Assembly (NCBI RefSeq): GCF_030684315.1
Contig: NC_081387.1
Coordinates: 5,002,497 to 5,066,496, forward strand
DNA length: 64,000 nucleotides
Source: Stegostoma tigrinum
Taxonomy: Eukaryota
Direction of reading: 5' to 3'
Shown: positions 46,801-62,707 of the stretch, piece after piece
Position numbering within the stretch: position 1 is the first letter of the stretch
Layout: every line of letters starts with the position of its first letter
The notes under the pieces: model-generated
What the model saw: the letters and a program-made list of their open reading frames with translations, nothing else
The model's database searches: none
What the model was told of the DNA's origin: nothing
Translations under genes and position numbers: made by a program

Positions 46801-49800
46801 CAGCTTTGAACAAAGACATCTGGTACTGAGCTGAGTGATAAGATAAGGGAGTGAAGGCCAAGCAGTTAGAAACCAGAATGAACTGGACCCAAACTGCTAA
46901 GTTTTGCTTTGCATCATAGACAGAGTTAAAGTACATGCTTAATGAGACAATACATTAACTTTCACACCCATGCTTATGAGACTGCTTAATTAACATAACA
47001 TGTGATGTATGGGAGATAATGGGAACTGCAGATGCTGGAGAATCCAAGACAACAAAATGTGAGGCTGGATGAACACAGCAGGACAAGCAGCATCTCAGGA
47101 GCACAAAAGCTAGGCCTGAAACATCAGCTTTTATGCTCCTGAGATGCTGTGTTCATCCAGCCTCACATTTTGTCATCATGTGATGTATGGAGAGGGTGGG
47201 ACAAGGGACGACGACATAGGAAGATTGTGCACCTTGGTGCTCAGATTGGATGGAGCTAAAAGGGGAGGATCTGGCTGGACAAAATGTATAAAAAAGGGCG
47301 GCTCCCTGACCTGTGTCTCAGGCAATGAGAGGCACCTGATTCTGCAGACTCGTAATAAAGCGCAAGTAACTTGTTTCCAAGACTTGGAGCACGTGAATCT
47401 ATATCTCACATTTGGGAATAGTTAGTACTTGGAGAATTGTTTGGTTTGTTAATAATTCAGTTTGTTCACTGTTAGAGCTAAGTGAATAGTTGCTTTGTTT
47501 ATAGAATATAAAGTTTATTTTCTTTAACCACTCCTTTATAATAGATTGGGGTGTGGAGGAGAGAAGCAGGTTAAACAAATTTTCACATGTAACAGGTTAA
47601 AAGGCAAAGTGCTCCTTGCTGGGTGTCTTGGCTTTAGTTATCCATGGCAGGGTCATCTCCACTTTATAACTGGGGGTAGGTAGTGCAAAGGCTGTGGTAC
47701 TGATGTTCAGAAAACCCTGCTTAGAGGGCGATAAAAAGATTTGACATACCAAAAATATTACAGTTGATAATACTGGCAATGTTACTCTAGTGGGGCAATT
47801 AATTTTTTGGAAAGGAGGAAAATGTTGCTCCAGCTAACAGTAGCCAGTTCCCAAAGGACCATGTCTTGCTAGTGTGTGCCAGACTACTGGATTTATAAAG
47901 GGCAGTTATGATTCCCAGGCACCAATTGCAGCCTCACTTTTTGCATTGTGCTTTAAGAGATTAAGGTTAAATATTTCATTCTTATTCAATTATAAGAGCC
48001 TCACCTTTAGCATTCTTCAGTCTCATTATCACACCAGCCAACAAGATGATCAGTCCAAACACAAAGCCCAGCACTCCGACAATGATCTTTGTTTTTTCAG
48101 ATTTAGTTGTGCTCTCTACTTCTACCAAAAGAATTTAAAGCAACATTTTAAAATAAGACTCAAGCCATAACTAGACTAGAATGCAAGTAGGTACAATGAA
48201 TACTTTAGCTGATTTGATCATAGCTGGAAGTTAATTTCCATTGTAGTACTGAGATTGGATTAATATACAGTATAATCAGATGACAGGATACAGTTCAACA
48301 GGGACCCTAAATCAATATGGACTGCAGTAAGAGAAAAAAGTGAAGGAACTCCTTAAGTGAAAACTCCAGTTTGATGTTGCTGAATTGCTCCAGTAATGTT
48401 CTGGGGTTACTGGACTAGGCATAGTTTTAGTAGCCTCAAGTGCAGTTCACATTCTGGTTCTACCACAATGAGTGGTTCCCTCTGATGTCAAAACGTGTGC
48501 CATTCACAAAAAAGGTAAGATCTGCACATGAACCTCCACCCAAGTGCCTGGATGACTGCAGCTGTAATATTGAAGCCAAAGCTTAATACCTTTCAGGTCA
48601 AAGCAACCCATGCACCATCTTCAACATTCACTCAGTGTTATGTACCCTCTACAAAATTCATTGCAACAACTGAGGCACCTGTGAAAGCACCTTCCAAATG
48701 CACAAATCCCACCCTCCTAAGGGGGCAGGTGTATTGGAGCATCTCAGTTCCTTAGTTGCACAATATTCTGGACTTGGAAACATTAGTTTTTTAAACTGTC
48801 AAAATCCTGGAATTCCCTCCAAGCAATAGGTGTATCTACATCAAAATGGAGTGTAAGTTTTCACCATAGTCTTTTCCAGGGCAAATAAAAATGCTGATCT
48901 ACACACTGAAAATGGCTATGAGACAAAATGGTATTTTTAAGTAAACACTCGTGTTGTGTTCTTGCAATGTACAAAATTTAGGAAGTTACATTTTCATAAG
49001 TCTAGATACATACAATACTACCTAGCCAACCTTAACATGGAATTCCTGTAACACTCCCGGGCTGGACCAAGTAAATATTATCTCTTACCCCAATCCACTC
49101 TCATTGGAGAGGTCAGGCTGCTGTGTTCCACATGGCAGGTGTATTTATCGCCATACACTGGCTCATACTGGAGATACTGGCGAACCTGATACGTCCAGTC
49201 ACCATTTGATAACAATTCGAATGTGACATCAGCATCAGAAACCTTCTGTCCATTTTTCAGCCATGTGACACTGATCTTTGCTGGGTAAAAGCCAACAGCA
49301 TAACAAATTAGGATGGCTGAGGGCCCAGGATGTGCTGATTCTTTTGTTTGGATTGTCACTTTTGGCTTAACTGGAATGGGAACAGAAAATTTTAGAAGCC
49401 AAGTTAATATTTTGTTGTTGTTATCAGTCTTGAGCAGCATGCCACAAAATTTAGAGTGCATAAAAATCATTGGCCAGGTCCAGTGAGGTTGAATTTGATC
49501 CCAGACTGCAAAATGTTAAACATGAGCTAGATTTTATCATAACTGCAGATGCAAGGATGAAGCTCAGTCAAAACTGAGTCACTGAATTCTGGAAAATATT
49601 GCAATAAAAACAAACAATTCAAATGTTTGAAACCTGACCAGCCTAAAGTGGGGACTAGCAACATGCACCAGTGGTATGGGATAGGGTAGATGCTAGTGGC
49701 TATGTTAATTTGAGCAGTAGAATTAATACTATTTGTCTCAAATCTTAAATTTAAATTTCTCTAACTTTGAAAAAAATCAGTGCAAAGCCATGTTGAAATA

Positions 49801-52800: not shown

Positions 52801-55800
52801 CCCCCCCCCCCCCCCCCGCCTCGGGCTGACCATCCAGACTGATCGCCTGCTCCGGCAGACGGTTTCAGGAGAGCGGCCTGAGGTGAGGGGGCCGGAGGGG
52901 GGAGACCCCGCCCGGGGGGCCGGGCCGGGAGGTGGTGAGGGCGGGTCAGGTGCAGGCGGCCCTGATCCGTGCTTCACACCGGGTGAAGACGGCCCGATGT
53001 CTCCCCCCCCACCCCCCGCTCTCACCTTGTCGGGCCAGGGCGGTTTCGTACATGATCGGGATGTTGTGTTCACAGTAAGCCGTCCCTTCCTGGTACTTCG
53101 CTTCCGCGCTCTCCCTGTTGAATCTGTCCACATTAGACTGCATCCAGGCTTTCACCGCGATGTACTTCTTCTGGTTATAGTCATAATACGCCATCAGCTC
53201 CTTGTCATAAACATGCTGTTCTAGAAAGACCCAGTCCCCGGTGCTGTTAAACAGACATCTGTGTAAGCCAATGAAGGAATGGGCGCCTGAGAGAGAGAGA
53301 GAGAGAGAGAGTAAGTCACCATCCCAAACCCATCCCGCCTGCAGAGATGGGACAGCCATCACACACTGTCCCTTGTGGCCGTAACCCAACTGATCCCCAC
53401 TAAACCGGGGCATCGGAGAAGGGAACCATAGAGGGAGCGCTCCCGGGTTCCGGAAAAAGCCTTTTATTCCTTTGTGGAAAGTGGCAGGTCGCTCGCTGGA
53501 ACAGCTAATGTCGCTTGTGATATGTTAGACTTGAGAAATTTAACTGTTTAGGGACTGATTGGCGTTTTTGGTGATTCACTGTCACGATATTGCGGACAGT
53601 TATGGCTGAGCAACAAACCCAAGCCGTTAAAGAGACTCAAGCAATTAGCCATTTCTGGCGAAACTACATCAAAACTCAATTTGCCACCCGCCAAATGAAC
53701 TGTTAGAGATAGTAGTAGCTGCAGAATCTGGGATAACACGGTGTGGAGCTGGACGAACACAGCAGGCCAAGCAGCAGAGGAGCAGGAAAGGCTGACATTT
53801 TGGGCCTAGACCCTTAAGAAATGTCGGCCTTTCCTGCTCCTCTGACGCTGCTTGGCCTGATGTGTTTATCCAGCTCTACACTTATGCCAAACAAACTGGA
53901 TGCTTTATGGCCACAAAGGACTGCTCTACAGGAGAATTTAGCTCTGATTAACTCCTTATCTTCAAAAAGGTGGTCAGAAGTCACAGCACACCAGATGACA
54001 GAATTTTTCCCCACCCGAAGTTAAACCTATCTTTTGGAGTGCATCCTTACTGAGTTTATAGACAGATCAAAGGTCTTAAAATGGAGGGGATGGGGAAGAG
54101 CAGACTTGCTGAATAAGTCTCCACAGGTAATGAAAGGTGTCAGAGAGCAAAGTGTCAACAGCTGCACAGCAAGCTAAGAGGTGACCTATCATACAAGTAA
54201 GTGAGACAGATAATTACAAAAAATTAAAAGGTGGTGTTGGACAAACCAATGACTGGAACAACATAATAGGTACAAGAGTCACATGCCAAGGATCTAACCA
54301 AGTACCCCAAAACTTTATAAACGCAAGTACAGAGATCACAAGATCAAGGTGACAGTGTCAAAACAGGACAGTTAGGAAAATTTTACAGATACCAAATATG
54401 GTGGGGGTCACATGAAGCACAAAATGAACCCATGATCACAGCTGAGGTCATCTTGATGGGCATGGAGCTTGACTATCAGTTTGATTGGTGATTCTGCTTT
54501 GCACATCTCATGGGTCACCTTGGAGACCACTCACCCAAAGATCAGGGGCTGAATATCCTTGACTGCTGAAGTGTTTCAACTGGGAGGGTACATCCCAGTC
54601 TGGCTCTGCTCTGAAAGCCTGCCATTTTCCAATAAACCTGGTGTTTGTGTGACTTCTGATCCAGATCATTCAGACAGATTGTTAGTCAGTGCTAAAAATT
54701 GCACAGACTACTTTGATAAGCAAACTGCAGACTTGTCGTAACTTGGGTGGAAGGACATTGAAAAACTCAGACTGAAAGACAAGAATTTGTTCAAGAACTG
54801 AACACTAGAGAACACCCTTTAGCACAAGTCAGAATACTGCAAGGATCAAACCATGAGACTTTTCTTCACCTCCCAATCCAGTGGGAGACTACTGGCTGGA
54901 GACAAGCAGAAATTGCTGGAAGAGCTCAGGTCTGGCAGGCTCTGAGGAGTGAAGCTACAGTTAACCTATCAGGTCATGTGACCCTTCCTGTTCTTTTGGT
55001 TTTTAAACTCATTGAAGTCTGGCCAGATTTCACCATTAATCAGGTAATAGCTATGTTGGGTACTGGGTTGAGGGGCCTTTTGTTGCTACATGCAATAGTT
55101 TGAATTATTGTTTGTGCTTGGAGATATTTAAGTAGCCAAATTAAAAGGTAACTCAGTGATTTACCCACTGCTTGTCTCTAGTTACCCCTCAAGTTGCTGA
55201 GCAGCCTGCTTGAACCTCTAATCCATGTCATGTTAAGGTGGGAATACTAGGATTTTAACAAAACTGCAGGAATAGCAATGCATTGCCAAGTCAGGTTTCA
55301 GAGGTTTGGAGGGGAACCTACTAATATTTTCCATATTTGTCCAACATTTGGAAATATGAGTCATGCCTTTGGAAGGCAACATCTTAGGCAAATTAATCCA
55401 GTTCATTATTTAGGTGGTACATTGCTGCTCAAGAACAGCAGCAGAGGGAATGAATTGCACTGCATCCATAAAGTGGAAGTGAGCTGCTTAGTCCTGCATA
55501 TTGTTATTAAATTGTTGTTGGGGCCAAATTAGTTCAGTTCAGAGTAATGACATTTCTGGTGATGGACAGGGGAGTCAGGTGGTGAATTACTCACTGCAGG
55601 ATTCCCAGTCTGACTGGGTCTTGCAGCTACCTGTAGGGGGTAGTCTTTTTTTGGAAATTGGTAACCCCCATTGAGGACAATGACAATGCCATTGAAGGTC
55701 AAAGGGCAATTAATTTATTTCCTAGCATGTGGAGAGAATGTCACTTGCCACTTTTCAGCCTAAGCATGGCTAGCCCAAGCCTTAGGATTTGCACATGAAC

Positions 55801-58800
55801 TGCTTCATTTGATCAAAAGTGGTGCTGAACATCAGTGAACATATCCACTTCTGACCTGGAGGGAAACTCATTGAAACAGATGCTGCTTGGGCCTAATACA
55901 CTTTGCTGGATTGGACATATTGACGATCATCTTATGTGCCTAGGATGAAGGAGTTCCTCCTTTTCCAAATATCCTATACAGCCACACAACATGACCTCCT
56001 CACTCCTATACTCAATGCACAGACCAATAAAAAGGCAAGCATACAAAATGCATCCTTCACTATGCTGTCTACCTGCAACTCCACTTCTAATGAACCAAGA
56101 ACTTGCACTGCAAGGTCTTTGTTGACCAAGACTCCTCAGGACCTTACACTGAACATACAAGTCCTGCCCTGATTTGCCTTTCCAAAATGCAATACTGCAC
56201 ATTTAGATAAGTTAAACTTCACCTGCTACTCCTCAGTCAGACAGCCCATCAATCAAGGTCCTGTTGGACAGGGGAGAATGTTACCTTTGAGCATATTAGT
56301 CTAGTTTCAGTGTCATCATACCTTCTATGTTCACATGAATAATTTATCAAAACAAAAAAGCAGTGGATCCAGCACTGATCCTTGTGCCAGGCCACTGGCC
56401 TCCAGTCTGAAAAGCAAATCTTTGCCACCATGTCTTCTACATGAGTCAGTTCTGTATCCAGTAGCCAGTTTTTCCTGTATTCTGAGATACAACCTGGCTA
56501 ACCAGTCTAACATGCAGAACCTTGAACACCTTACTGTACAGGACATTCATTGGGCCACTTTTGGAATACTGCATTCAGTTCATGTAGCAGGGACATCAGA
56601 AAATCCAGAAACTTTAGGTTCAGAAGAGATTTAAAAGGATGTTGCCAGGTTGAGGGTTTGAGCTATAGGGAGAGGCTGAATAGGCTGGGCTGTTTACCCT
56701 GGAGTGTCAGAGGCTGAGGGGGTTGCCTTATAGAAGGAGTTAAGGTCGGGGGGGGGGGGGGGGGCGGCATGGATAGGGTGAATAGTCAAGGTCTTTTCCC
56801 AGGATAGGGGAGTCCAAAACTAGAGGACATGGGTTTAAGAGGGGAAGATTTGAAAGGGACCCAAGGGCAGCTTTTTTCCATGCAGAGGGTGGTGTAAATG
56901 AAGTGAGCACTGAGGGGAAATGGAGGTACAAATTACAACAACATTTAAAGAGGTAGCTGGATGGGTATGTGATTAAGGAGGGTCCAGAGGGATGCAGGGT
57001 CAAATGCTGGCCAACAGACCTAGGTTTATTTAGGATATCTGGTTAGCATGGACAAGTTGCGCCAAAAGGGTCTATTTCTAGGACTCCTAAACACTGTCAA
57101 TTATCTTGATGTAAGAGCCTGCATATTTTAGCTTTTGTCCAAGATTGAACAAAGGCTAGAGGCCAGAACTGAGTGGCCCTAAAGTGGATGTCACCGAGTA
57201 GATGCTGCTTGATAGCAATGTTGATGTCTTCCACCAGTGAGTAGAAACTATGGTGTTGTAATTGGCCAGGTTGGATTGGTCCTGCCTGGTGTTCTGGCAT
57301 TTCCCAGTGTTGTACTTAATAGCTTGGCAAGGAGTTGCTAGTTCTTAAAGATTAAACACCATTGCCAGATGTAGCCAGGGCCCATAGGTGTAGTAGCCAT
57401 GATATGAACTGGCTCAGGCCTGGCATCTGATGGGGACACCACTAGATAAGGCCCAGGATGGATCATGCACACCACTTCTGGCTGGAGATTGCTGGGAACG
57501 CTTCAGCCTTATTTTTCAAACCTGATGTGCTAAGCTGACAGTTGCAGACAGGGATTTGTGGATTGTCATGAGTTGGTTGTCCACTGCTGTTTATATTGAT
57601 AGTTGCAGGACTGCAGAGCTTAGATCTGATCTATTGGTTGAGAAACTTAATGTTCATTTGCTGAGACTAGTCCTGCTGTGAGCACATTTTGGGTATGCTT
57701 AGTGCTGCTCTTGGCATACCCTCTAATGAGCCAAAGTTAACCCATGACCCTGATGGCAATAGAGTGACATATGCTGGGCCATGAAGTTGAGGATTGTACA
57801 ATTCTGTCATTGACAGCCCATAAGAAGCCAAGTCTCAAATTCAGATTTGGCTGATAGCTGTCCTATTCAGCAGTGAATGCAAGACTTCATCTCCACGAGG
57901 ACTGTACAGGGGTCAACTGTAATATTACCTGGATATATTGGAGGCAGATTGGCAAGGATGGAGTCAGTAAGTTCTTCCATGTTGGCTCCCTCACCACCTG
58001 CTGCAGACTCTGCCAGCAGCAGCAGTGTCCTTTAGTACCTGACTAGACAGTTCTGATGGACAATCATTGAAATGTTAATTCCAAATACTGCTGGAATTGG
58101 AGTTTTGCCAGCACTTAAAATATTCTGTTACTCCAGAGAGGTACAAAGAGTCTTGCCTGCAGTAACAAAGGAAGCGTGCAAGTTGATTAGCACATGCAAA
58201 GTCAACCATCTGTTGGAGATTGGCTAGGACACCAACTCAACTGAGTAGACAAGGTGTTTTGGTCTAATAAACAAAAACTCAAGGTTGGGGAAACAACATG
58301 TCAATGGAATCACAGATAACTATGAGGACCAGAGGATACATCAGGACATAGATCAGTCGACAACATGGGCAGAGATGGCAGATGGAGTTTAATCTGGAAA
58401 AGTGATGTAATGCATTTCAGAAGGCCTAATCCAGTTGGAAAACAGTAAATGTCAGAACCCTTATAAGTATTGATTGGCACAGTGATTGGAGTGTACACAG
58501 GTCACTGAAAATGGCATGGAGTTGGAGAAGGTGGTCAACAAGGCATACATCATGCTTGCCTTCATCAACTGGGGCATGGAGTTTAAGACTTGCAGGTAAT
58601 GTTGCAGCTTTATCAAAGCTTAGTTTGGCCACATTTGGAATATTGAGTTCAATTCTGGTTGCCACTTATGATTGCAAAAATTATAGTGCAAAAGTTTCAC
58701 AACAGGAAGGAATTGAGTACCAAAGGTTAACATTGTTCATAAAATGCAAGCTCGAGATTGAGCTGCTTGAACTACTGGAAGCAACCACAGCAGTAAGTGT

Positions 58801-61366
58801 GGCAGGCATGTTAACTGACTGGTCCAAGTCACAAATCAGTACAAAGTATTTTCCTCCAAGCTTCACAAGTGAGGAGCCATTGTCATTTACAAATGTTTGC
58901 ACTACTGGAGACATTCGACCTATTTCCTTGCTGTCTCAGCACAAGCAATTTATAATCATTGCTGCAGAATTAAAGACTTTTCTAAAGTGAAATTTAATGT
59001 TACTGTGACACTTCAGCACTTTCTGCATCTAATACACTTACGTAATTGCTGGTTGATCCTAGTACAAGTAGCTGACAATGAAATGGACTTGATGGATTAA
59101 AAGTTGAGAAGTTAAAGATTACAATCCTAGACAAAGTTGTGGGTTGTATTGCATCCAACTTTTAAAATATACTGATGTTTTAGATCACAGAACATTTTAT
59201 TAATTCAGTTGAGAACTGACTAATATTTAAGCTTAGGACAGTGAAAATTCTGTTTTAATCAGCTGGCAAAGAAACCTGAAACCCCTAGTGAGTTGAGTTT
59301 CGAAACAGTTCTGTTAAACAAGTTGTTTGAGCCAGCTTGTGTAGGCACACTGCTTGTCTTTCTGAACTCCAATACCTTATTTCTGGGATATAGCAAAAGC
59401 ATGGTTGATACAAGACTTATACAAGTAGTGTTGTTTCGTGAAGAAATGAATCTAAGCTGCTGGAGAAACTCAGGTCTGGTAGTATTGGGGAGAGAAAGCA
59501 AGTTATTAAATCTAGTGACTCTTCAGTACATTGTCACATTCAATTTCGAAACTAGTTCTTTTGAGATGAGCCACAAGGCCACTGGACATTTGTCCATTTA
59601 AAGCCACTGTTCTCTTGAAGTGTTTTAGATTGTTGCTAGTCTGCTCCTAATTCAAGGCATTACCAGTCTTAGGCATTTTAAAACAGAAGTGATCTTAAAC
59701 CCCCTGAGGTTGTGGCTAATCATTATGACCCTGACATCTTTTGTGGAAAGGATCTGGGCTGAAGAGCCAGATTGTAAAGCAACTACAAAAACAAAGTTGC
59801 TGTAAAATCTCAGCAAGTCTGACAGCATCTGAGAAGGAGAAAAGTTACTGTTTCAGGTCCAGTGACCCTTCCTCATAAAGCAGCTATGTTTGTTTCCTTT
59901 AAAAAAAAGAGGACAGACCATGAAAATATCTGCAAAACATAAGCAGCCTAAGTAAGCCTGCAATATTGAACAGCATGCAACCCCAGCCTTAGGCCAGTGC
60001 AGAAAGATTCTTGAAAATAATTGTAAACATTACAAACATCCTGATGCAATTCCAAATAATCCCAACTGCTGAACAACTCAATTAATCCTTTTGGACTTCA
60101 GGTGAAAGGAAACAAAAGAGCTATTGCTTTTGAAGCACAGTATCCTCCAATTCTATTTCACTGTGGTCTGGGTATGGCAGGGCATAGTTATAGGGAGAAA
60201 GTTTTATTGCATCAAACTTTTTTAAAGTTTGGCACATGTTAGTGGGGAAGAACAAACACCTCACTACATCTTTGCCCCTGAACCATAATCTCATTAGAGA
60301 GGCATGCTTCTGATGGAGTAGCCCAAACTGCCTGAAATAGCCACCATGTTAGAAATAAATATAGTGAGTCATGCTGATTGACTGGTCTAGGTAACAAAGT
60401 CAGCACAAGAACTTTCATCCAAAATGCACAAGTGTGGGATCATGAGAAATTGGAGTTATGTACTACAGTAGAAATAGATGCTGAGCAGACTGTAAAAAGC
60501 AGGATAGTAGGATTTGATTTTTTTGATTAACAAAGACAGCTATTCTCCAATTTTGCAGTTCATAGGAAAGGGAAATTAGTGTTGGCCCTTGTTCTATTGA
60601 AAGTGCAAAAATAGGAAGGTTTTCCTAAAAAAAGCTAGTGTAAGTACACCCAGAACAGTGAACAGTACATTCCCAAATAAACAAAGATAATAGAATTTTA
60701 AAAAGTTTACTAGGTATATGGAGAGATCTTAAGAGTTTGAGCTTGCGCTCAATGGAGTGCATATTGGGAAGCTTATTGCAAAATTCATAGCCATTTTATG
60801 AACGTCAGGGCCAAATAACTTCCTTCTGCCGTGAGTAGTTGTAACACTGATTTAGAGCTTTAATAACAAAACTATTGGACGTGCTCCCACATGCAAAGGC
60901 GACCACTCAGTACATTGTGCAGTTTATTCAGCTGAATTTACACCATCAGGTTCATACTCTTACAGGTTACAGTAAGAATTACAGGTTTGTTTTTAAAATA
61001 AGCTTCCATTTTAACAAAGCTGACAAAAGATTCCAAACACTTACTGCCCTCCAATGAGGGAGTTTCTCCGTCACCTCTAATCCTTCAAGCAATCACTTTA
61101 AAAAAGTCAGTCCCTAAAGTCTCCAAGTTAGGGTAACGACAATTTCAAGTTGTGACTGATGCACTCTAATCTAGATGAGGACTAGTGGGGGCAGTAATGT
61201 TAAAGAGACCTGCAAGTTTCCTTCCCCGGGGTCCGTAGGCTGCACGGGGGGTCTTACCGGCTCCGCTGTCCCTCTCGCCGTTAAAGATAACCAGGACCGC
61301 GATAAGGAGAGGGATCCGTACCCACAAAGAGCAAGCAGCAGCGCCACCCAGCGACTCCATAACCAT
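43869..61366 (-). CDS. MHC2B: MHC class II beta chain gene, 6 coding exons, 273 aa
   Basis: Manually spliced exons of 109+261+282+117+27+26 = 822 nt form one open frame: leader, beta1, beta2 (Ig C1-set), TM and a split cytoplasmic tail ending AILDSNHGPRLMGPAVS*. All introns are GT-AG and phase 1. Confidence 0.96.
44934..44960 (-). CDS. MHC2B: MHC IIB exon 5 (27-nt cytoplasmic microexon)
   Basis: TTTCTTTCTTTCAG|CTATCCTGGATTCCAACCATGGCCCAC|GTAAGT encodes AILDSNHGP in frame, with strong splice sites on both sides. Confidence 0.85.
46777..47410 (+). mobile_element. solo-LTR-like repeat in intron 4
   Basis: TG...CA ends, TATAAAAA at ~47287 and AATAAA at ~47354. No clean TSD, so the 5' boundary is uncertain. 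Confidence 0.45.
47013..47176. mobile_element. fold-back Penelope pLTR mini-element
   Basis: 14-bp TSD catgtgatgtatgg (46999-47012 and 47177-47190). Same arms as 9988-10221. Confidence 0.88.
48005..48121 (-). CDS. MHC2B: MHC IIB exon 4 (connecting peptide and transmembrane)
   Basis: EVESTTKSEKTKIIVGVLGFVFGLIILLAGVIMRLKNAK carries the class II beta GxxGxxxGxxxxxxG motif. Acceptor TTTTGGTAG, donor G|GTGAG. Not present in the ORF track. Confidence 0.95.
49089..49370 (-). CDS. MHC2B: MHC IIB exon 3 (beta2 Ig C1 domain)
   Basis: 282 nt encoding LICYAVGFYPAKISVTW...NGDWTYQ...YTCHVEHSSL, the class II beta2 signature. Acceptor TTCCAG, donor G|GTAAG. Confidence 0.98.
50636..52560. mobile_element. 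Penelope-like element in MHC IIB intron 2 (minus body, plus inverted end)
   Basis: RT TMDIQSLYTCIPH...KGVAMGTHMGPSY and FYIGET motifs. 13-bp TSD tgatgggtagttg (50623-50635 and 52561-52573). Confidence 0.9.
52467..52501 (+). ncRNA. minimal hammerhead ribozyme motif in a Penelope pLTR
   Basis: CTGATGA-A-GGG-tctaag-CCC-GAAA-CGTC: catalytic core boxes, stem II and palindromic ACGT helix III. Stem I is weak. Confidence 0.6.
53026..53286 (-). CDS. MHC2B: MHC IIB exon 2 (beta1 peptide-binding domain)
   Basis: GAHSFIGLHRCLFNSTGDW...YCEHNIPIMYETALARQ has two Cys, an N-glycan sequon NST and the conserved H81/N82-equivalent CEHN. Acceptor (TC)nAG, donor G|GTGAG. Confidence 0.97.
53289..53311. repeat. 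(GA)n microsatellite forming the polypyrimidine tract of the exon 2 acceptor
   Basis: About 11-12 GA units abut the acceptor AG. Confidence 0.9.
53704..53885. mobile_element. fold-back Penelope pLTR mini-element in intron 1
   Basis: Inverted arms with an imperfect flanking repeat gccaaa..aactg. Confidence 0.75.
55975..57085. mobile_element. degenerate CR1 fragments in opposite orientations in intron 1
   Basis: QGSVLDPLLF remnant on the minus strand and ORF2 C-terminus/3' UTR on the plus strand. Confidence 0.7.
61258..61366 (-). CDS. MHC2B: MHC IIB exon 1 (signal peptide)
   Basis: Encodes MVMESLGGAAACSLWVRIPLLIAVLVIFNGERDSGA with a hydrophobic core. Donor G|GTAAGA. The start could be ATG 61366 or ATG 61360. 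Confidence 0.9.
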
Positions 61367-61414
61367 ACTGCAACAATCACAAACTGACACTGAGCGCGGG
61401 TGGGGGGAGCTGCC

Positions 61415-61422
61415 TTTAAATA
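61415..61422 (-). promoter_or_regulatory. TATA-like box of MHC IIB
   Basis: TATTTAAA on the minus strand, about 50 bp upstream of the first ATG and just downstream of the CCAAT array. Confidence 0.6.
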
Positions 61423-61433
61423 GAGATCCGGAG

Positions 61434-61523
61434 AACCAATCAAAGTGGGGACTGGGCCAACCAATCAGAGTGGGGACTGGGCCAACCAATCAGAGTGGGG
61501 ACTGGGCCAACCAATCAGAGTGG
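61434..61523 (-). promoter_or_regulatory. 25-bp tandem repeat (~3.6 copies) carrying four inverted CCAAT / Y boxes
   Basis: Unit ccaatcagagtggggactgggccaa, with CCAAT at 61436, 61461, 61486 and 61511. Three copies read CTGATTGGTT on the gene strand, the class II Y-box consensus. Confidence 0.85.
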
Positions 61524-61534
61524 AAGATCCAAAT

Positions 61535-61812
61535 GAACTTCGGATGCTGTAAGATAACGAAGTGTGGAGTTGGATGAACACAGCAGGACAAGCAGCATAT
61601 CAGGGGCAGTTTGTGCTCCTGAGATGCTGCTTGTCCTGCTGTGTTCATCCAGCTTCACACTTTGTTATCTTGGATTCTCCAGCATCTGCAGTTCCCATTA
61701 TCTCGGATGCTGTAAATCAGGAACAAAAACAGAAGTTGCTGGAAAAGCTCAGCCGGTCTGGCAGCCTCTGTGAAGTAAAAGTCAGAGTTAACATCGCAGG
61801 TCCAGTGACCTG
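61535..61812. mobile_element. Penelope family-2 terminus with a nested fold-back mini-element (61553-61702)
   Basis: 13-bp TSD tcggatgctgtaa (61540-61552 and 61703-61715). The host matches 11879-11990. Confidence 0.85.
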
Positions 61813-61889
61813 CTCACTGTAGAGTCTTATATAAGGCCAATCAACATGACACAGGACACATCCAATCACAGTAGACTAATACTTGTCCA

Positions 61890-62194
61890 ATTAGATTAGA
61901 TTAGCTTCCCTACAGTGTGGAAGCAGACCCTTCGGCCCAACAAGTCCACACTGCCCCTTGAAGCATCCCACCCAGACCCATCCCCCTAAACGCTATGGGC
62001 AATTTATCACAGCCAATCCACCTAAACTGCACATCTTTGGACTGTGGGAGGAAACCGGAGCACCCGGAGGAAACCCACGCAGACATGGGGAGAATGTGCA
62101 AACTCCACACAGACAGTCACCTGAGGTGGGAATCAAACCCAGGTCCCTGGTGCTGTGAGGCTGCAGTGCGATCCACTGAGCCACCGTGCAGCCC
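61890..62194 (-). mobile_element. full-length HE1/V-SINE-like SINE
   Basis: A and B boxes, V-domain, LINE-type 3' tail ending in (CTAAT)n, and a possible ATTAG target duplication. Confidence 0.88.
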
Positions 62195-62217: not shown

Positions 62218-62262
62218 CCAATCAGAAGTGAGCTACGCGCTGTTCATCATCTGCTGCTGTGG
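62218..62262 (-). promoter_or_regulatory. candidate X-box and Y-box module
   Basis: Minus strand reads CCACAGCAGCAGATG, a 22-nt spacer, then CTGATTGG. This resembles the mammalian X1 (CCTAGCAACAGATG) and Y arrangement. Confidence 0.5.
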
Positions 62263-62707
62263 GAAGCAAATGCTGTAAAAAAAATTAAAATCGTCGGATC
62301 ATTGGTCAGGAGTGAGCCAATCAACATAGGTCAGCCTATATAACAGTGTTAGGGGGTGGGGTGCGGAGGAGCACCACAGGATCATAGGAGTTGTGAAGGT
62401 GATGTTTCAGCTCAGCTGATGCTGCCTGGCCTGAATCTGTGCTGACTTGTTCTAATCCAACCCTGCACTTCCAAGAACTTAGAAATCTCATCCTTACCGA
62501 TGGATTCTAGAATTTTACCAACAGCCGAGGTTTGGCCAATCAGCCAATGATTTTCCATTTTTTGTCTTGATCCTTTCTTAAACAAGGGGTTACAACAGCA
62601 ATTTTCCAATCATCTGGGACTTTCCCTGACTTCAGTTTGAGATTCATGACTATAGGCTGACCTAGAGATAGTAACAACTATTGATACTGGAGTCAGAGAT
62701 AACACGT

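Follow-up and report, generated by a model that had tools for sequence, protein, structure and literature searches.

Class II promoters carry S, X, X2 and Y boxes conserved in order and spacing (strictly so for S, X and Y in the first two), according to the parts of PMC2278383, PMC1802633 and PMC4374748 available to us. The 64-kb stretch of shark DNA analysed here (referred to as the window, with coordinates given in it unless a contig position is named) raises the question of how a class II beta gene is controlled when the DNA just upstream of it holds not one Y box but a row of them, repeated in tandem.

The beta gene lies on the minus strand. Exon 1 (61258-61360) encodes the leader, with its ATG at 61360 and a GT donor after 61258. 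Exon 2 (53026-53286), bounded by splice sites, encodes the beta-1 domain and matches PF00969 with E=0.0013 and 19.3 bits, just under the cut-off of 20.9 bits; it gave no match against the PDB at E 0.01. Exon 3 (49089-49370) encodes the beta-2 domain of the Ig C1 type (PF07654, E=1.4e-22), and its single-domain PDB matches are class II beta chains. Exon 4 (48005-48121) encodes the connecting peptide and transmembrane segment, and the reading frame of exons 1-4 is free of stops with three of the five candidate exon-4 acceptors (48115, 48118 and 48121). Searches of the assembly with DNA and with exon 2 found no second class II beta gene. Contigs of sequencing runs X7 and X13, which are not recorded as RNA, link the exon-1 donor to exon-2-like letters, showing it to be spliced in other animals. 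The X7 contigs end before the bases that tell the exon-1 alleles apart, the spliced contigs of runs X6 and X16 represent an exon-1 allele different from that of the window, and no spliced contig proves expression of this exact allele. At 61332-61343 the contigs of runs X6 and X16, which carry two organism codes, have the same five listed exon-1 substitutions relative to the window, a pattern that would fit an old allelic lineage.

A TATA-like element, whose function is putative, is found on the minus strand at 61415-61422, between exon 1 and the tandem repeat. The preliminary description had noted a TATA-like box beside the repeat; the box is indeed there, but the arrangement has to be read for a minus-strand gene, with the element lying between the CCAAT boxes and the ATG at 61360. 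The contigs of runs X6 and X16 end at 61378-61380 (that of X6 continues for 24 unaligned letters), a weak hint that transcription may start just downstream of this element.

The repeat itself, here called array A, was recovered by TRF at 61434-61523 with a period of 25, 3.6 copies, 98% matches and a score of 173; the other 12 of the 13 TRF rows in the 64-kb window all have periods of 16 or less. Its four CCAAT boxes start at 61436, 61461, 61486 and 61511 in plus-strand letters, at the 25-bp spacing given in the preliminary description. As the beta gene is on the minus strand, they are Y boxes oriented as is usual for class II genes, inverted CCAAT boxes just upstream of the coding sequence, 76-151 bp from the ATG. 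The view of the repeat as an amplified Y box that departs from the single-Y S-X-Y module was thus confirmed, and the array is a tandem row of factor sites within a regulatory region, as in a regulatory VNTR. Positions 61444-61523 form a perfect run of 80 bp, and a single-base change falls in the proximal unit.

Across 204 kb of this region, 5 of the 244 plus-strand CCAAT boxes have a partner exactly 25 bp on, where 0.29 would be expected, and all five pairs sit at the beta promoter, which therefore holds same-strand boxes within the 24-28 bp range at five exact 25-bp intervals; on the other strand, 1 of 285 boxes has such a partner (0.40 expected). Equally spaced CCAAT triplets with a spacing of 15-60 bp are confined, in the same 204 kb, to array A and to a second array (array B) described below, and the number of 25-bp triplets expected on the array strand is 0.00035. 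The spacer had been called GC-box-like, a description that fits poorly: it agrees with the Sp1 consensus at 8/10 positions with both mismatches in the core and with the GT box at 7/8, and judged by its letters it is no canonical GC box. G-quadruplex propensity at the promoter is low (G4Hunter mean 0.57). Searching with a double-box pattern brought up nothing beyond array A and, on a different contig, an unrelated doublet of 22 bp; the unit is therefore not a dispersed repeat. That doublet (C3:120472574) consists of two CCAAT boxes 22 bp apart, flanked by words of the array unit and followed by a TATA-like motif; no gene was identified at this position.

If these are Y boxes, an X box would be expected at a fixed distance upstream. 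A strict X1-N19-21-Y pattern gave 7 matches in 3.2 Gb, 6 of them on this contig, against 0 for the reversed pattern used as a control. The matches include the class II alpha promoter, a likely class I promoter and three orphan modules, whereas none falls at the beta promoter; the X2 (CRE-like) element is variable among the six strict shark modules. Two strong X1-like motifs that face apart are present in beta intron 1 (57379-57432), one of 18.7 bits at 57419 on the plus strand and one of 11.6 bits at 57379 on the minus strand, and neither has a Y box at 19-24 nt.

Retroelement DNA abuts the distal Y box of array A, which is why a good X box is missing from the position where one would normally stand. 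The element in question, TE2 (61524-61810), is the end of a high-copy repeat that we take to be Penelope-like; it has 9,208 exact pattern matches across the genome, and similarity to 30 copies sets in at about 61524, the very edge of array A. It is interrupted by a younger insertion of 163 bp, TE1 (61553-61715), which has a 58-nt inverted repeat and a 13-bp direct repeat that marks the target duplication (61540-61552 and 61703-61715); median identity is 91% to 59 local hits for TE1 versus 85% to 58 hits for TE2. With both elements deleted in silico, none of 140 junction choices placed an X box at the canonical spacing, the best score being -10.1. In the core of the TE2 repeat family, at 61730-61743, there is an X1-like motif of 10.7 bits, stronger than the 14-mer considered below, and thousands of copies may thus hold RFX half-sites.

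The insertion might nevertheless have supplied what is missing, with a TE2-derived X box and the distal Y box forming a working X-Y pair and the other three Y boxes being spare. The best X1 candidate for any of the four boxes is a 14-mer at 61538-61551 on the minus strand, wholly within TE2-derived DNA; it stands 20 nt away from the Y box, a gap also found in the alpha promoter, ranks in the top 0.25% of 14-mers and was left intact by the 13-bp duplication of TE1. It scores, however, only 3.2 bits, against 13.2-21.9 bits in leave-one-out scoring of real modules with a PWM trained on motifs that our own pattern had chosen; its RFX half-site core is broken, and by eye no S-like motif precedes it, TE1 being what comes before. 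Across 30 TE2 copies the equivalent 14-mer reaches scores of -2.8 to 2.3, nearly as high, and there is consequently little sign that this one has been tuned. We consider a TE-donated X box improbable. As its Y boxes lack an X1 at the expected spacing and no S box precedes an X, the beta promoter was not classed as a proximal S-X-Y module.

Beyond the retroelements, the 25-bp spacing recurs. Array B has a proximal part (61827-61891, minus strand, single copy) made of a TATA-like palindrome at 61827-61834 and CCAAT boxes at 61837, 61862 and 61887, again in exact 25-bp steps. Its spacers agree at the level of chance, with 4-6 of 18 positions identical within array B and 4-7 of 18 between array B and array A. 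The array is split by a SINE-like insertion (61890-62194, minus strand), delimited by BLAST hit ends, target-duplication candidates and read depth. Once this SINE and its whole tail are removed, the next CCAAT, at 62218, lies 25 bp from array B, 30 or 35 bp being possible as well, and the Y box at 62218-62224 is likely to be the fourth box of array B. The same box belongs to a distal X1-Y module (62218-62261, minus strand), whose X1 (62248-62261, PWM 12.5 bits) is 0.9 kb upstream of the beta ATG and stands 23 nt from the Y box, versus 20-21 nt in the six strict modules. Array B and the module are both single copy in the genome. When X and Y were sought 19-24 nt apart, the 204 kb yielded five modules: the distal X1-Y module, the one at the alpha promoter and three S-X-Y copies in inverted orientation. 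The 20 shuffles yielded none, a control that is partly post hoc since the gap was widened to 19-24 nt after the 23-nt case had been seen. By eye, a GGAGC-type S-like motif precedes X1 in four of these five modules and is absent at 62261. Without TE1 and TE2 the two arrays would be about 39-41 bp apart and out of phase, and as they also share no spacer homology, a single ancestral array giving rise to both is a guess.

The ATG has three insertions less than 900 bp away, and no spliced contig proves this allele; both facts would suit an account in which a single Y box slipped neutrally in an insertion-damaged, weak allele and the extra boxes are idle. Drift, however, leaves unexplained why array B keeps its CCAAT boxes at exactly 25 bp while its spacers are randomised, and the frame of exons 1-4 is open in what is the sole beta gene found in the assembly. 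We therefore find the neutral account very unlikely.

The class II alpha gene is encoded on the same strand as beta, with exons found 24-32 kb past the window. The alpha promoter (contig 5113846-5113886) has an S-like motif, an X1 and a single Y box at 20 nt, its leader exon begins about 150 bp downstream, and no repeat was found within 300 bp upstream. The three inverted S-X-Y modules (contig 4957845, 4974529 and 4987065) are 77-106 kb from the beta ATG, downstream of the beta gene and inverted relative to it, and are 89-94% identical over about 230 bp. No leader exon follows them, and they are candidate distal enhancers or class I remnants. Two further partial copies were found, and the 28-bp stretch after these distant modules resembles the 5' UTR of the likely class I promoter.

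Next to the distal X1-Y module, a CCAAT (62317) and a TATA (62337-62343) on the plus strand face away from the gene and form a possible divergent promoter candidate. The surrounding segment (62290-62400) is single copy, has a possible splice donor after the TATA and holds 12 nt in common with the first box of array B. The beta promoter could then be a CIITA-independent or two-way NF-Y/TATA promoter that works without X boxes, perhaps with an opposite-strand transcript, as the outward-facing pair, the palindromic TATA at 61827-61834 and the lack of a canonical proximal X would allow. The presence of the X1-Y module and of three distal S-X-Y modules speaks against it, no opposite-strand transcript was seen here, and the standard module kept by alpha argues for shared control of the two chains. 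Such a promoter seems to us a doubtful proposition.

The reading we favour, at a probability of about 55%, is that array A would be an NF-Y docking row over a TATA-like core, with RFX and CIITA likely coming from the displaced X-Y modules, and that array A would be the proximal half of a larger set of 25-bp-spaced CCAAT boxes before beta. From the letters of the locus we infer that the promoter before the insertions likely had the order X1, four phased boxes, TATA, four phased boxes, TATA and ATG. Since 25 bp is just above the minimum spacing of 24 bp reported for two NF-Y trimers (PMC4982600, as far as its available text goes), several trimers could bind array A side by side. CIITA control would be exerted both over a short range, through contact with the X1-Y module at 62218-62261, and by looping from the distant S-X-Y modules. 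Selection would likely keep the boxes and their phase and let the spacers of array B drift, and the spacers of array A may have been homogenised by slippage or unequal exchange.

The number and age of the units were examined in 7 of the 23 listed sequencing runs (X1, X5, X6, X7, X13, X16 and X17). Runs X5, X6, X7 and X16 have no coverage of array A, run X17 matches an unrelated locus only, and run X1 has a hole at 61499-61528; these gaps are not evidence. A 34-nt match in runs X1 and X17 with deletions (61458-61494) was considered as a second allele and rejected, as its unrelated flanks place it at another locus. At that locus, which two organism codes share, several CCAAT boxes follow one another at a spacing of about 22 bp, beside an RFX-like palindrome.

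Short tandem repeats are prone to mis-counting, and the array could in principle be an artefact of assembly. Run X1, however, has an identical contig of 433 nt that reaches into array A and a separate contig of 55 nt, which is exactly how long the loop from a 25-bp period should be at k=31 (a value assumed from the index word length). The loop contig is 1.85 times as deep as the flank; the assembled count predicts 2.0, an additional unit 3.0, and one unit fewer no loop contig at all. Because run X1 could come from the source sample and depth taken from contigs is only approximate, these figures count against an artefact, which is almost certainly not the explanation, and are silent on polymorphism.

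Run X13, which has another species label, also contains a 55-nt contig (depth 4.5), aligned on 61476-61525 from letter 3 to letter 52 with 4 differences, which may be errors, and no gaps. When 25-bp units were simulated, 17-23 of 51,525 gave the X13 coordinates as a loop, and all compatible units have AA, as in the truncated distal unit of the window, and one more substitution. Even when not read as a loop, the contig covers the positions of two boxes at 25-bp spacing. The comparison uses the alignment coordinates of a contig of low depth, which makes a shared array a lead; array A is probably common to a relative and homogenised separately. The 25-bp phasing looks old because array B has the same spacing with unrelated spacers and the X13 contig fits a 25-bp array. 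The near-identity of the units in array A likely reflects homogenisation, and only this homogenisation need be recent. The preliminary description had taken near-identical units as a sign of recent expansion; in that form the idea is not supported, given an array B that has the same spacing and chance-level spacers, and an X13 contig that fits a slightly different 25-bp unit.

It had also proposed that the repeat may be polymorphic in copy number, so that a recent, variable minisatellite would tune the level of the beta chain through the number of NF-Y sites. Units that are 98% identical and a perfect run of 80 bp are prone to slippage, and a human NF-Y minisatellite, at ABO, varies between alleles, according to the text of PMC7187371 that was available. 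No length variant was seen at the shark locus, however, and the loop depth of 1.85 in run X1, possibly the source, fits the assembled count, leaving the polymorphism unsupported as stated. The phasing appears older than the unit sequence, and even for ABO the effect on expression is called controversial in the same part of PMC7187371. We regard this tuning as unlikely; it is not mutually exclusive with the NF-Y docking row.

How the docking row relates to known systems can be seen by comparison. With the S-X1-X2-Y module, bound by RFX, CREB and NF-Y and acted on by CIITA, the shark beta promoter shares the inverted CCAAT directly upstream of a class II gene; it differs in having four Y boxes at 25-bp steps and in lacking a good X or S where the module would place them, the nearest good X1 being 0.9 kb upstream on a second phased array. 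Closer in spacing is a common class of human NF-Y-bound sites with two CCAAT boxes 24-28 bp apart, which RFX5 co-occupies largely without its own motif, going by the accessible portion of PMC4889920. The beta promoter resembles this class (PMC4889920, PMC4982600, both seen in part) in its same-strand boxes 25 bp apart, its G-rich spacer and the lack of an adjacent RFX motif. The human class, in the same portions, has two boxes where the shark promoter has four plus four, one run being a homogenised minisatellite, and it was defined by human ChIP, with RFX5, Sp1/2, FOS, IRF3 and PBX3 co-bound, mostly at non-MHC promoters and LTRs. The CBF/NF-Y minisatellite of ABO likewise has a CCAAT in each tandem unit and four copies, but its units are described (PMC7187371, in part) as 43 bp long, about 3.8 kb upstream and allele-variable, in contrast to the 25-bp units in the shark core promoter. 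Short proximal duplications are also reported for cetacean class II promoters (the DQA T-box and the 11-bp repeats of DRA); as far as the available text of PMC6155461 goes, they keep the S-X-Y module whole and add no further Y box, unlike those at shark beta. The orphan inverted S-X-Y modules of the shark, tens of kb from genes, recall the distal S-Y enhancers of mammalian class II loci, which bind CIITA; in the portion of PMC1802633 available, the mammalian enhancers add to an intact proximal module, whereas the shark ones may have to replace it.

A broader extension of the docking-row reading, which we put forward tentatively and think rather less likely to be right than wrong, would apply to elasmobranchs in general. 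An old, selected 25-bp NF-Y lattice would have replaced the proximal S-X-Y module of beta, recruiting RFX and CIITA without an adjacent X, and alpha would keep the textbook module; the lattice would turn over by concerted evolution and survive retroelement insertions, and its unit number would set the balance of alpha to beta.

A literature search, with supplements and subscription papers outside its scope, turned up no account of any class II promoter from a shark, and the word "promoter" has 0 occurrences in the main text of PMC4219347 and PMC10751288. What the shark locus offers is a classical beta gene without a proximal X but with phased NF-Y sites, in the oldest lineage that has an MHC and beside an alpha gene with a standard module. 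It is a natural test of whether NF-Y arrays or distal modules can recruit CIITA, and of the means by which co-expression of the two chains is maintained. Promoter polymorphism is known for HLA-DQB (PMC2118753, from the part available), and if the unit number of the shark array varies, it would add regulatory diversity to the very old allelic lineages of shark class II genes described in the accessible text of PMC10751288.
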